A stretch of 3,479 bases of DNA, from the sequence record KM389437.1; one strand, given 5' to 3'. A program made the translations under genes and the position numbers. Of this stretch, positions 1 through 3,479 are shown in pieces. The notes under the pieces are model-generated. The model did no database searches. It had not been told where the DNA came from and saw only the letters and a program-made list of their open reading frames with translations. Every line of letters starts with the position of its first letter. The first letter of the stretch is position 1. Origin of the DNA: Escherichia phage Phi05_1999 B.

Positions 1-56
1 AGAGGAAGAGGAAGAGGAAGATATATATAAAACCCCACACATAGCGCACGTGCGCG
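1..56. other. Possible right arm of a phage replication origin embedded in the O gene: GAGGAA x3 tandem hexamer (2-19), (AT)n/A-rich run (20-34), perfect 12-bp palindrome GCGCACGTGCGC (44-55)
   Basis: Repeats and palindrome read directly from the sequence. In lambda the origin lies inside O as iterons, then an AT-rich region, then a palindrome. The iterons would lie upstream of the window and are not visible. Confidence 0.35.
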
Positions 57-442
57 AGGGTGCTCCGACCAGTGAAGCGAACGGTATGCCGTTGCAGGTG
101 GCTGAACCTGAATTTCTGGATGGCCTGAGTGAACCCATCGGGAAATTTCCGATGACCGATGGCTGGCTACCGTCGCCAGATTTTCGGCGGCGTGCTGCGC
201 TGTGGGGAACGGCCCTGCCGGAACCGGAATTTACACCTGCTGAACTTGCTGCATTCCGGGATTACTGGATGGCTGAGGGCAAAGTGTTCACGCAGGTTCA
301 GTGGGAACAAAAATTCGCCAGGCACGTAAATCATATCAGGGGAAAATCAAAAAATGCCGGGAAAAGCGATGAGCTTGACTGGAATAACACTGACTGGATA
401 GAAGGGGTGTGGGATGAAATCAACTCCAGAACTTCTCAATGA
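2..442 (+). CDS. O: Replication initiation protein O-like, C-terminal (P-interacting) portion; 5' end lies outside the window
   Basis: The frame of the 50..442 ORF stays open back to position 2 (EEEEEEDIYKTPHIAHV-REGAPT...), so the GTG at 50 is internal and the gene is truncated by the window edge. The C-terminal end (...SDELDWNNTDWIEGVWDE) resembles the lambda O C-terminus (...LDLTNTDWIYGVDL, from memory). Position immediately upstream of and overlapping a P-like gene matches lambda O-P order. Stop TGA 440-442. Confidence 0.75.
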   Translation, partial: EEEEEEDIYKTPHIAHVREGAPTSEANGMPLQVAEPEFLDGLSEPIGKFPMTDGWLPSPDFRRRAALWGTALPEPEFTPAELAAFRDYWMAEGKVFTQVQWEQKFARHVNHIRGKSKNAGKSDELDWNNTDWIEGVWDEINSRTSQ

Positions 443-1190
443 GTACGATCGCTTACGTGAGCATGGTGTTGCTGTGCATGAAGAGCGGCGGGACTGCAAT
501 GGCAAAAAGGAGCAGGTTGCTAGAATTTTCAATGAACTATTTGTCCAGTTACAGGCTGCATTTCCTGCAAGCGTTTCGACCATAAGGGAGCAGAACAAAC
601 TTAATGAATTCCGTAAGCAATGGATGCTTGCGTTTCTGGAGAATGGGATCACTACAATGGAACAGGTTAACGCTGGTATGCGCCACGCCCGCGCCAGTGA
701 ATCTCCGTTCTGGCCGTCGCCAGGGCAATTTATCAAGTGGTGTAAAGACAGCAAGATGGTTCTTGGCGTCACCATTGACGATGTGATGGCGGAGTTTCAC
801 CGGTACAGCAAGGAAAAAAGTTTATATCCTGGTGGTCCCGAAAGATTCCCGTGGCGGCATCCGGTTATGTACTGGGTCGTATGTGATACCCGCCGTGCAA
901 TGTATCAGCGCCAGCTTAGCGAGATTGAGGTTGAGAAACACGCGCGCAGGCTGCTCGATGATTGGGCGAAAAAGGTGGCTTCCGGACAGCAGATACCCGA
1001 TCCGGTGATCAGCATACAGGCAAAGCCAGAACCCATGAGTACACCTCCGGACACAGGGAGAGACGTTTACCATCCACCAGGGCGAAGTTTCGGGTGCATG
1101 CCTAACGCCGCCACCCTGGGGGGAATAACACCGGCGCAGTGGCTGATGGAGGAGTACAGGCGGGGAAAGGCAGCAGGATTTATCAAGTAA
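414..1190 (+). CDS. P: Replication protein P-like (DnaB helicase loader), 258 aa
   Basis: Translation aligns by eye with lambda P from memory: here LFVQLQAAFPASVSTIREQNKLNEFRKQWMLAFLENGITTMEQVNAGMRHARASESPFWPSPGQFIKWC versus lambda VFSQLLATFPASLANRDQNEVNEIRRQWVLAFRENGITTMEQVNAGMRVARRQNRPFLPSPGQFVAWC. N-terminal length before this block is the same. SD AAGGGG (402-407) lies 6 nt upstream of ATG 414. Start overlaps the O stop by 29 nt. Stop TAA 1188-1190. Confidence 0.88.
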   Translation: MKSTPELLNEYDRLREHGVAVHEERRDCNGKKEQVARIFNELFVQLQAAFPASVSTIREQNKLNEFRKQWMLAFLENGITTMEQVNAGMRHARASESPFWPSPGQFIKWCKDSKMVLGVTIDDVMAEFHRYSKEKSLYPGGPERFPWRHPVMYWVVCDTRRAMYQRQLSEIEVEKHARRLLDDWAKKVASGQQIPDPVISIQAKPEPMSTPPDTGRDVYHPPGRSFGCMPNAATLGGITPAQWLMEEYRRGKAAGFIK

Positions 1191-1195
1191 TACCA

Positions 1196-1215
1196 GCGCG
1201 ATAGCGCATTTTTTT
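1196..1215 (+). terminator. Weak intrinsic-terminator-like hairpin, GCGC-GATA-GCGC followed by A + T7 (tR2-like position after P)
   Basis: 4-bp all-GC stem (1196-1199 / 1204-1207), 4-nt loop, then T-run 1209-1215, located 6 nt after the P stop. The stem is short, so termination would be partial at best. Lambda has tR2 downstream of P. Confidence 0.3.
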
Positions 1216-1226
1216 ACGTCTCGATA

Positions 1227-1243
1227 ATTACCTGTTAGGTAAT
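1227..1243. promoter_or_regulatory. Perfect 7-3-7 palindrome ATTACCT-gtt-AGGTAAT (candidate operator, copy 1)
   Basis: Arms are exact reverse complements. A second near-identical copy lies 62 bp downstream, centre to centre. Confidence 0.4.
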
Positions 1244-1261
1244 AAAATGTTCTAAAATCTA

Positions 1262-1290
1262 TTGATTTCGTGTCTTATGTGGTTTTTAAT
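1262..1290 (+). promoter_or_regulatory. Sigma70-like promoter candidate: -35 TTGATT (1262-1267), 17-bp spacer, -10 TTTAAT (1285-1290)
   Basis: 4/6 and 5/6 matches to TTGACA / TATAAT with canonical 17-bp spacing. Predicted +1 near 1297, giving a very short leader to ATG 1308. Not verified. Confidence 0.25.
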
Positions 1291-1305
1291 TACCTAAGAG
1301 GTAAA
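1289..1305. promoter_or_regulatory. Near-perfect palindrome ATTACCT-aag-AGGTAAA (candidate operator, copy 2) overlapping the -10 element, predicted +1 and SD of the DUF1064 gene
   Basis: Same half-sites as copy 1 with one mismatch in the outermost position of the right arm. Overlaps SD AAGAGG (1296-1301) of the gene starting at 1308. Confidence 0.4.
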
Positions 1306-1307
1306 TC

Positions 1308-1652
1308 ATGAGAAAACAGATACAGGCTCTTGGTCGACTCAAAACAGGCCAGATGAACAAAACAGAATCTGCGTATTGCCAGCACCTTGAGCTGCGTAAA
1401 CGTGCAGGGGAAATCGCCTGGTATCGATTCGAGGGTATCAAGCTGCGGTTAGCTGACAACACGTTCTATACGCCAGATTTCGCTGTGATGCTCGCCACCG
1501 GAGAGATGGAACTGCACGAAGTGAAAGGTTTCTGGACCGACGACGCCAGGGTGAAAACCAAAGTCGCCGCAGATCAGTATCCGTTCCGAATCATCGGGGT
1601 AACGGTTAAACCAAAGAAAGCAGGTGGCGGCTGGAACATCGAAGAGTTCTGA
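1308..1652 (+). CDS. DUF1064-like protein with PD-(D/E)xK nuclease-like motif, 114 aa
   Basis: SD AAGAGG lies 6 nt upstream of ATG 1308. Translation contains AGEI (res 33-36), YTPDF (res 54-58) and ELHEVKG (res 68-74), i.e. D57 ... E71-x-K73, the spacing of a PD-(D/E)xK core. The overall pattern matches my recollection of the DUF1064 family found near phage replication genes. Stop TGA 1650-1652. Confidence 0.7.
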   Translation: MRKQIQALGRLKTGQMNKTESAYCQHLELRKRAGEIAWYRFEGIKLRLADNTFYTPDFAVMLATGEMELHEVKGFWTDDARVKTKVAADQYPFRIIGVTVKPKKAGGGWNIEEF

Positions 1653-1713
1653 ATCGACGATCTTTTTAGTTATCAATGTAATCAATAAGTTATGTGGATA
1701 AGCGAGGGTAAAG

Positions 1714-2331
1714 ATGGAAAGTAATATCAAAGGGTTAGTTGCCGCCGGGCATGAGATGGCTTCGGAACTGAACGCAGAATGTGGTGCCGTTGATATGCGC
1801 AGTGTGGCAAAGCTGATCAGCGATTTGGCAACGCAACTGGAAGTGCAACTGGTGCGTGCTAATGCGCTGGCAGCGGAGAATGCTGGGCTTAAGGCCTTCA
1901 AAACCGCCGTTTATCAGCAGATGGGCGTCGGATGTGATGCTCCTGAATTCTCCATTACGACAGGTTTGAGTAACTTACGTCGTTTTGCTGACACACTCCA
2001 CGCCATTGAACGTGAGTTCTTTACCAAAGAGCTACCTGATGAAGAGCACGAAGGCGAAACATTCAATGAATGTCCACTTAGCTGGGGAATGAGCGTCGAA
2101 CAGTACGTTTCCGAGTTTCGCAAATGCCTGGCTGAAGTGCGGGCGCAGGGGGTGGATGCTGCTATAGAAGCTGCAAAAAATCTGGTGGCCCAAGAATATG
2201 AGTATAAGGATTTCAAAGCGGCGCAGAGTGATTGCTGTATGCACCCTGGTTCAGACCTGGTAGGGAAGGTTGAAATGACTGAGTGGTTAGTTGACTTTGC
2301 TGCCCAGCTTCGCAAAGGAGGCAACCAGTGA
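1714..2331 (+). CDS. Hypothetical phage protein, 205 aa, acidic, helical N-terminal region
   Basis: SD GAGGG (1704-1708) lies 5 nt upstream of ATG 1714. Long ORF with ordinary amino-acid composition, co-directional with neighbours. Stop TGA 2329-2331 overlaps the next gene's GTG start. No family recognised by eye. Confidence 0.7.
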   Translation: MESNIKGLVAAGHEMASELNAECGAVDMRSVAKLISDLATQLEVQLVRANALAAENAGLKAFKTAVYQQMGVGCDAPEFSITTGLSNLRRFADTLHAIEREFFTKELPDEEHEGETFNECPLSWGMSVEQYVSEFRKCLAEVRAQGVDAAIEAAKNLVAQEYEYKDFKAAQSDCCMHPGSDLVGKVEMTEWLVDFAAQLRKGGNQ

Positions 2332-2627
2332 CTGTATGTCTTATTGATAAACGTCGACGTGGGCAACAAATACCATCTGTTGAAATGCCGAATCACACAT
2401 GGTTTTGCGTACTTGATATCGATGGTATGGATACGTTGGTTGACACTCGTCATTACTGCGATACCGCAACAGCTACTCCGGCGAAAGCAAAGAAAATGGC
2501 TGCTCTGATAGAAAACTGGACTCCACCTGATGGTTGGTGCAATGGGAATGATCGAGATTGGCACGAAAAAATGAAGGGCTATATCTGCGATTTTTTACGT
2601 AAATGCAACGGCTTCAGGGGGATGTGA
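2328..2627 (+). CDS. Hypothetical small Cys/His-rich protein, 99 aa (GTG start)
   Basis: Strong SD AGGAGG (2316-2321) lies 6 nt upstream of GTG 2328, which overlaps the upstream stop as GTGA (translational coupling). Six Cys and three His in 99 aa. An alternative in-frame ATG at 2385 has no SD. Stop TGA 2625-2627. Confidence 0.6.
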   Translation: MTVCLIDKRRRGQQIPSVEMPNHTWFCVLDIDGMDTLVDTRHYCDTATATPAKAKKMAALIENWTPPDGWCNGNDRDWHEKMKGYICDFLRKCNGFRGM

Positions 2628-2628
2628 T

Positions 2629-3201
2629 ATGACCAAAATTAACTATCAGGCACTGCGTGAGGCGGCAGAACGTGCAATTCCGGCAATGGAACGCCTGTTA
2701 ATGTTGCCAGTTGATGATGATTTGTTAAGTGAACAGGAACTTAAGGATTACGGTGTGGATATTGATGCGCTCAACGCCTTCAAATTTCTGACCGGACCAG
2801 AAACCGTGCTGGCGCTGCTGGATGAACGGGAAAGAAACCAGCAATACATCAAACGCCGCGACCAGGAGAACGAGGAAATTGCGCTAACGGTAGGGAAGCT
2901 GCGCGTTGAGCTGGAAGCTGCAGAGAAGCGCATTGCAGAACTGGAAGCCGAACCTGTAAGCCAAACTTACAAGTTGAACGAGCTGTCGGGCAACTATCCG
3001 GTAACTCCGGATGGTTGGATAAGCTGTAGTGAGCGAATGCCCGCTCAAGATGATTGGATTTTAATTTATTCAAAGCACGGCGAGTATATGGCAGGACAGG
3101 TACAAGGGGAATACGTGGAGTTGAGCGACGGCACTTTATCGTGGTTAGGGAACGCCTTGTACTGGATGCCTCTACCGGAACCGCCGCAGGAGGTTAATTG
3201 A
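2629..3201 (+). CDS. Phage protein with N-terminal ALREAAE motif (Ea22-like?), central coiled coil and C-terminal DUF551-like domain, 190 aa
   Basis: SD AGGGGGA (2616-2622) lies 6 nt upstream of ATG 2629, one nt after the upstream stop. Residues 85-108 have a heptad-like VELEAAEKRIAELEAE. The C-terminus PDGWISCSERMP...YWMPLPEPP matches my recollection of the DUF551 signature (W-x-WMPLPEPP). The N-terminus resembles ead/Ea22-like family starts. Family assignments are from memory only. Confidence 0.7.
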   Translation: MTKINYQALREAAERAIPAMERLLMLPVDDDLLSEQELKDYGVDIDALNAFKFLTGPETVLALLDERERNQQYIKRRDQENEEIALTVGKLRVELEAAEKRIAELEAEPVSQTYKLNELSGNYPVTPDGWISCSERMPAQDDWILIYSKHGEYMAGQVQGEYVELSDGTLSWLGNALYWMPLPEPPQEVN

Positions 3202-3395
3202 TGGTCTCCTTCGCGAAATATACGATTATTGACTGGATAGCATTCATTCAGGTTTTGCTCATCTGGTTTTATATGGCTTACAGGAGTGGACAGTGGATTG
3301 TCAGTGTAGCCTGTAGCAATGGATGGCGTTGGTGGAACCGAAAGAATAAAAAAAGCGCTGGCCTTGGCTTCGTTTTACGAAGCATTCAATCTTAA
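3201..3395 (+). CDS. Small Trp-rich single-pass membrane protein, 64 aa
   Basis: Strong SD AGGAGG (3188-3193) lies 7 nt upstream of ATG 3201, which overlaps the upstream TGA (TGATG). Hydrophobic segment IIDWIAFIQVLLIWFYMAY is followed by the basic tail WRWWNRKNKK. Six Trp in 64 aa. The ORF track starts it at TTG 3198, but ATG 3201 is better placed relative to the SD. Stop TAA 3393-3395. Confidence 0.55.
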   Translation: MVSFAKYTIIDWIAFIQVLLIWFYMAYRSGQWIVSVACSNGWRWWNRKNKKSAGLGFVLRSIQS

Positions 3396-3479
3396 CAGTC
3401 TTCAGCCTGGTTCTGTCGTTGTAGTCACCACTCAAAGCGGCATGACGATACAAATTCACAAGCCAAAGGAGGAAGGTCG

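Follow-up and report, generated by a model that had tools for sequence, protein, structure and literature searches.

The question raised by this locus is whether a short, tryptophan-rich open reading frame encodes a working membrane protein of its own or is what remains of a larger gene. The window that we analysed, 3,479 nt of Escherichia phage Phi05_1999 B (KM389437.1), carries this frame on the + strand at 3201..3395, from an ATG at 3201 to a TAA ending at 3395, 64 codons with the product MVSFAKYTIIDWIAFIQVLLIWFYMAYRSGQWIVSVACSNGWRWWNRKNKKSAGLGFVLRSIQS. The initial annotation had described 64 residues with one hydrophobic segment, a basic Trp-rich tail and six tryptophans, and reading the sequence bears out each of these properties: the best Kyte-Doolittle 19-residue window covers residues 8-26 (mean 1.82), the basic tail that follows holds six K/R and no D/E in residues 28-51, and six or more Trp in 64 residues have a probability of ~4.5e-4 at a Trp frequency of 1.5%. 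The frame had also been taken for a complete stand-alone gene, and this does not hold, as it ends early through a 1-nt insertion, a run of seven adenines (A7) where phage CUS-3 has six (A6). We consider it highly likely that the window ORF represents a conserved phage accessory gene (DUF4752 / PHROG 667) in a frameshifted form that is most probably inactivated. The DUF family to which this truncated allele belongs is already catalogued, and RefSeq already lists the allele as a pseudogene.

An extra adenine between two halves of one gene

The first 51 codons (3201..3353, + strand) are the native 5′ part of the gene: they are identical to residues 1-51 of CUS-3 ECRS218_0060 and encode a predicted transmembrane helix (residues ~8-27), then a brief hydrophobic stretch at 32-38, and lastly GWRWWNRKNKK, which is basic and Trp-rich. 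The frameshift site is the A7 homopolymer at 3348..3354 (+), which in intact alleles is an A6 run read as AAA AAA for K50 and K51; with one extra A in this run, the ribosome would be out of frame after residue 51. Codons 52-64 (SAGLGFVLRSIQS) and the TAA stop (3354..3395, +) form an out-of-frame tail of 13 foreign residues, at the position where intact homologues read ALAL[AD]SFYEAF.... From 3355 to 3479 (+) the remaining 3′ part of the gene is found displaced into the +1 frame, with ALALASFYEAFNLNSLQPGSVVVVTTQSGMTIQIHKPKEEG corresponding to residues 52-92 when the protein is intact. This 3′ part continues past the end of the window, and in identical genomes it ends 7 nt later, overlapping the GTG of the ASCH-domain gene. 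The alternative products across the A-run would have the junction peptides ...NKKALALASFYEAF... and ...NKKSAGLGFVLR.

The lesion is isolated in an otherwise unchanged stretch of DNA. A megablast search with window 2600..3479 returned 100% identical segments in K1 ExPEC/APEC chromosomes, including those of ATCC 11775, APEC O1, S88 and SF-468, and a 99.9% match to phage CUS-3, from which the window differs across these 880 nt solely by A7 against A6. In a three-way DNA alignment the window and ATCC 11775 both have A7 and CUS-3 has A6, with no other difference. The CUS-3 stretch is a single intact 94-codon gene, and the equivalents of window 3201 to ~3486 in the identical chromosomes carry the RefSeq label “DUF4752 family protein, frameshifted”. 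The RefSeq/PGAP pseudogene copies in ATCC 11775, ZJ3920 and SF-468 are 100% identical to window 2128..3479, A7 lesion included; the gene is alike in all of them, and the window differs only in its upstream mosaic, where 1..1893 resembles a second prophage.

Some gene callers predict a second reading frame in frameshifted alleles. The remnant ORF MDGVGGTERIKKALALASF... (3319..3479, +) starts at an ATG at 3319, without an obvious Shine-Dalgarno sequence, shares the frame of the displaced 3′ part and is 55 aa long when complete. Several databases list it as a protein (P0029 in our collection), and PHROG 16281, which matches residues 49-94 of the repaired protein, is built from the 3′ remnant ORF of broken alleles; that family therefore consists of pseudogene fragments. 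A mis-annotation is avoided once the “Trp-rich membrane protein” of 64 aa and the remnant ORF of 55 aa are recognised as the two halves of one broken gene. As the front half of a gene cut by one extra A, the window ORF would be an ordinary decaying prophage gene rather than a new small toxin.

The intact DUF4752 protein

Family assignment rests on Pfam DUF4752 (PF15944), an 84-position model whose gathering threshold of 27 bits is exceeded both by the 64-aa ORF (50.9 bits, positions 2-47) and by the repaired 94-aa protein (117.4 bits, positions 2-84). The window ORF does not carry a full-length domain (~84 positions, ~85-95 aa) in a single intact frame; since it is limited to positions 2-47 and A7 breaks the frame, it is to be regarded as a pseudogene or truncated DUF4752 allele. 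A PHROGs search places the repaired protein in phrog_667 (function not known). The initial annotation had proposed a check for homologues with an intact frame in related prophages: such homologues exist, but they are 92-94 aa long (CUS-3, 94 aa; ST104 orf7, 94 aa; HK106 gp31, 92 aa); it is the copy in the window that is decaying. An exhaustive HMM search covering 1.84 billion cluster representatives found DUF4752 in only 44 clusters, with most full-length members at 82-108 aa, and a genome-contig scan, whose reach was limited by its pattern-based design, gave two loci, one in a probable E. coli phage contig within a Segatella MAG and the other in Kosakonia oryziphila (51% identity).

In all 31 members that we aligned, a hydrophobic helix at the N-terminus is followed by a basic juxtamembrane stretch, a (K)A(V/L)xxFYDAF-type helix and a PG...TT.xG β-hairpin. 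The hydrophobic helix and the GWRWWNR motif noticed in the window are accordingly conserved parts of a real protein family, the Trp-rich motif being conserved in close relatives only and replaced in distant members by a plain basic RRRK-type stretch. The C-terminal part is kept in every full-length member aligned, down to 17-30% identity. Compared with the intact members CUS-3 ECRS218_0060, ST104 orf7 (YP_006363), HK106 gp31 and VT2-Sakai orf78, the window shares residues 1-51 with CUS-3 and lies in the same genomic place, after an Ea22/DUF551-type gene and before an ASCH gene, with overlapping start and stop junctions; unlike them, it lacks the conserved C-terminal 43 residues.

An AF2 model built on the 31-sequence alignment (mean pLDDT 63.7) has a helix over residues 4-45 (pLDDT 88 over 11-30), followed by a second helix at 50-61 and a hairpin at 72-76 and 82-86, both of low confidence (pLDDT ~53 beyond residue 50); the support that the model gives is limited to the secondary-structure layout. 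A Foldseek search of BFVD found fragments of the DUF4752 family only, and a profile search against PDB sequences gave no match at E≤1. The single hydrophobic segment with its flanking charge bias fits a bitopic inner-membrane protein, for which one helix of ~19-21 residues is expected, and the intact protein would probably be oriented with its short N-terminus outside and its C-terminus in the cytoplasm, because the basic stretch of residues 28-51, free of acidic residues, should stay inside by the positive-inside rule.

These features suggest how the protein might work and what the lesion may have cost it. The intact protein would hold a small helix-plus-β-hairpin C-terminal domain at the membrane, and this cytoplasmic domain may act on a target of the host or the phage early after infection or induction. 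In the window allele the extra A would yield the native membrane-anchor half followed by the foreign residues, and the conserved C-terminal ~43 residues would stay untranslated in the +1 frame; with the C-terminal domain lost, the allele would be a loss-of-function remnant, tolerated by the prophage presumably because the gene is dispensable.

Selection acts most strongly where the window allele has lost its reading frame. Over 76 distinct intact haplotypes pN/pS is 0.11 overall, 0.20 in codons 1-51 and 0.069 in codons 52-91, so that the lowest value falls in the part no longer translated from the window allele. These ratios indicate that the intact DUF4752 gene is under purifying selection, strongest in the C-terminal part that is lost here. 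In temperate phages of enterobacteria, Stx phages among them, DUF4752 is a compact, well-conserved and wholly uncharacterised membrane protein, and the form worth studying is the intact 94-aa protein and not the window allele. The natural A6/A7 pair (CUS-3 or UTI89 against APEC O1 or S88) provides near-isogenic on/off alleles.

Alleles of the A-run and other readings of the lesion

The 90-nt segment that we searched for is present in 519 records among 5,426 complete E. coli genomes; in about 30 of the 519 the match to the A7 allele is exact along all 90 nt, the other matches listed spanning at most 89 nt. Exact pattern scans of IMG/VR gave one A5, at least 120 A6, seven A7 and no A8 matches. 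With run length ignored, the haplotype of the window is common to 29 A6 loci and 8 A7 loci; the insertion is therefore recent on that background. A7 is also found independently on other haplotypes (phage GER2 and loci L210/L214, 7 positions different from the window), A5 on yet another (locus L090), and A5-type and A8-type products occur in our protein collection (P0022, P0025 and P0019, the last of A8 type). The gene is broken elsewhere as well, by premature stops in 5 of the 81 A6 haplotypes and by a T4 → T3 deletion in Stx2 phage 86, and such lesions away from the A-run fit plain decay. Deposited complete phage genomes, those of Stx2 phage 86 and GER2, are among the carriers of broken alleles. 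Taken over these sequences, the A-run is probably a mutational hot spot for slipped-strand indels and not a designed switch.

Stx2 phage 86 had first appeared as a candidate for a further A-run indel through its two-piece tblastn matches, which was ruled out when the DNA showed the T4 → T3 change at codons 22-24. In the record of this Stx2-converting phage (NC_008464; positions 1501..1781 of our locus L227) the broken DUF4752 gene is left unannotated, and RefSeq places across the DUF4752 region a reverse-strand ORF, gp43, which is probably spurious.

A first alternative reading of the lesion, suggested by the initial annotation, is that the 64-aa product is itself functional, as a toxin, an exclusion or abortive-infection effector or a lysis modulator, and is either neofunctional or a still-functional truncation. 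The 64-aa form does retain the membrane anchor and the conserved GWRWWNR motif, its start context (Shine-Dalgarno sequence and overlap with the upstream stop) is intact, and the allele, which is common in K1 ExPEC/APEC genomes, has been copied from one prophage to another. Exactly this 64-aa product occurs in 969 index blocks of assemblies, and the A7 allele is present in two different prophage types of K1 ExPEC/APEC strains; so wide a distribution could mean that the product is tolerated or even useful, and not merely decaying. We nevertheless regard a working 64-aa protein as improbable, as the part that it has lost is the most constrained of the family and is kept in the full-length members aligned, and its 13-residue tail is an out-of-frame reading that varies between independent A7 alleles by the underlying SNPs only.

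Searches for a toxin, defence or lysis function also speak against a working 64-aa protein. No toxin family (Hok/Gef, Ldr, Ibs, TisB and similar) was matched in Pfam, NCBIfam or PADLOC and no holin family in Pfam, NCBIfam giving no match of any kind, and the repaired protein and its three upstream neighbours had no match in PADLOC-DB (2023 version, which does not cover every exclusion protein). Rfam gave no match in the window at E≤1, and hence no antisense or other known RNA. The gene sits in an early accessory operon and not in a lysis cassette, its neighbours being replication and Ea-type early genes and ASCH, followed by terminase or xis/int. Hok/Gef-type type I toxins, HK97 gp15 and the P22 Sie proteins are small single-pass membrane toxins or exclusion factors, and the 64-aa product is like them in its small size, one hydrophobic helix and basic flank. 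It differs from them in having no sequence or profile match to them and no Rfam antisense RNA, in being embedded and coupled in an operon rather than forming a separate cassette, and in belonging to a family defined by a conserved soluble C-terminal domain that these proteins lack.

A second reading makes the A-run a recoding or contingency site, at which programmed +1 ribosomal frameshifting or transcriptional slippage on A7 would produce anchor-only and full-length protein side by side, or reversible A6/A7/A5 switching would make the gene phase-variable in populations of lysogens. Indels have recurred independently at this one run (A7 at least twice, plus the A5 and A8 types), and on AAA-AAA-A a tRNA-Lys that moves one base forward can pair again perfectly. 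Slight slippage at an A7 run, in transcription or on the ribosome, could restore some of the full-length protein. Slippage of RNA polymerase on long A/T runs is known for runs of ~9 or more; for classical phase variation, 6-7 is a short run. Most alleles by far are A6 and single-frame, and diverged members do without the run altogether (AAG GAT GAT AAA in Kosakonia; SDEK and KDPK in P0014 and P0023). The codon after the run is AGC, neither a slow nor a stop codon, and no Shine-Dalgarno-like stimulator lies directly upstream, unlike prfB-type +1 sites; a conserved slippery run and two-frame architecture with a stimulatory element, as in programmed frameshifting, was not found. Together with inactivating lesions outside the run, namely the T4 → T3 deletion and the premature stops described above, these observations make a recoding or contingency site decidedly improbable. 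Highly doubtful, too, is the more specific proposal of a contingency locus at which reversible A5/A6/A7 slippage or low-level transcriptional slippage on A7 toggles an early prophage membrane protein between full-length and anchor-only forms, the anchor-only form being retained in K1 ExPEC/APEC lineages for its benefit to the lysogen.

Finally, we give almost no credence to a homopolymer sequencing or assembly error in a gene that is intact in its source genome: homopolymer indels are a common type of error and CUS-3, from a related K1 strain, has A6, but A7 recurs in many independently sequenced genomes (APEC O1, S88, ATCC 11775 and both prophages of SF-468), and the 969 index blocks likewise speak against it.

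Junctions, neighbours and the mosaic window

The upstream gene (2629..3201, +) encodes 190 aa, an Ead_Ea22 N-terminal part (PF13935, 1.1e-29) joined to a DUF551 C-terminal domain (PF04448, 5.9e-11). Its TGA (3199..3201) overlaps the DUF4752 ATG by 1 nt, the shared A, and the Shine-Dalgarno sequence GGAGG of the DUF4752 gene (3189..3193, +; 7 nt before the ATG) lies within its last codons (..PQEVN*). The overlap of the ATG with the upstream stop, which the initial annotation had pointed out, is thus confirmed, and the translational coupling that it implies is conserved: a 1-nt stop/start overlap (TGATG or TAATG), with a GGAG[GA] Shine-Dalgarno sequence inside the last upstream codons, is found in 85 of the 88 loci. 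A specific partnership with the DUF551-like gene, proposed on the strength of that overlap, is not supported, as the upstream protein is exchangeable between loci. Its length varies between 58 and 341 aa, with many dissimilar DUF551-type C-termini; at some loci it encodes a Lar-like protein or one of no family, and the common part is the last few codons (..QEV[KN]*) only. Distant DUF4752 genes follow yet other genes: in VT2-Sakai one for a DksA-like zinc-finger protein, in Klebsiella phage Chronis one for a hypothetical protein, and in phage D6 a gene separated from the DUF4752 gene by a 92-nt gap. The junction is kept while the upstream protein varies, and so represents a conserved mosaic joint with translational coupling rather than evidence of a specific partnership.

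On the downstream side, 74 of 84 loci show an 8-nt overlap between the DUF4752 stop and an ASCH-domain gene. Across the family, synteny and junctions in phage early accessory regions are conserved, as expected of a member: in P22-like, lambdoid, Stx and SPN1S-like phages the DUF4752 gene belongs to the early accessory block, where it usually has an Ea22/DUF551-type gene before it and an ASCH-domain gene after it and overlaps both with its start and stop. The lambda exo-xis and P22 ea-region genes (Ea22, Ea8.5) belong, like DUF4752, to an early dispensable block, and the upstream gene here is likewise of the Ea22 family with a swappable C-terminal domain. In lambda, ea8.5 lies just downstream of ea22, and DUF4752 fills the corresponding slot after the ea22 homologue. 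The two have no sequence relationship, and DUF4752 differs from Ea8.5 in its predicted membrane anchor. DUF551 is the C-terminal signature of one Stx Ea22 variant (PMC10834534), and Ea8.5 has a hybrid homeodomain/zinc-finger fold (cited in PMC10834534). The term DUF4752 was not found in the literature that we searched, and the exo-xis region papers in it make no mention of the gene.

The upstream gene has its own annotation history. In identical genomes PGAP splits the 190-aa ORF into an ‘ead/Ea22-like, missing C-terminus’ pseudogene and a 54-aa hypothetical protein (WP_229001816.1), and in the window the Ead_Ea22 + DUF551 ORF is intact over 2629..3201 (counterpart 6030..6602 of locus L001). 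Its relatives are 217-341 aa long, and the 190-aa form may thus represent an Ea22-type protein with an internal deletion.

The remaining genes of the window are tightly packed and all on the + strand: a DnaT-like gene cut at its 5′ end (50..442), the Replication protein P gene (414..1190), a DUF1064 gene with its ATG at 1308 (1308..1652), a gene for a 205-aa protein of no family (1714..2331) and a DUF7739 gene (2328..2627). The 205-aa ORF has no Pfam match above threshold (a 20-bit partial match only) and no PADLOC match, and its slot in related prophages is taken by other genes, of 159 aa or ‘eae-like’. As a whole the window is a mosaic, in which 1..1893 is 98.5% identical to the second, SPN1S-like prophage of K1 strains and 2128..3479 matches the CUS-3-like prophage at dsdC with 100% identity. 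Both prophages co-reside in K1 ExPEC/APEC strains, and the presence of the frameshifted allele in both prophages of strain SF-468 suggests exchange between them; the whole window was not found in any one complete E. coli genome, the best coverage being 84%.

Two further features lie towards the 5′ end of the window. Within 1219..1313 there are two operator-like palindromes, ATTACCTgttAGGTAAT (1227..1243) and ATTACCTaagAGGTAA (1289..1304), 62 nt apart. They bracket a promoter-like site (1221..1248) that closely precedes the DUF1064 gene, and a phage regulator could bind to them. At the window edge, positions 1..20 contain three tandem GAGGAA hexamers (agaggaagaggaagaggaag), apparently inside the 5′-cut DnaT-like gene: the GTG at 50 is the first start codon after the edge, and the DnaT-like gene of relatives starts further upstream.
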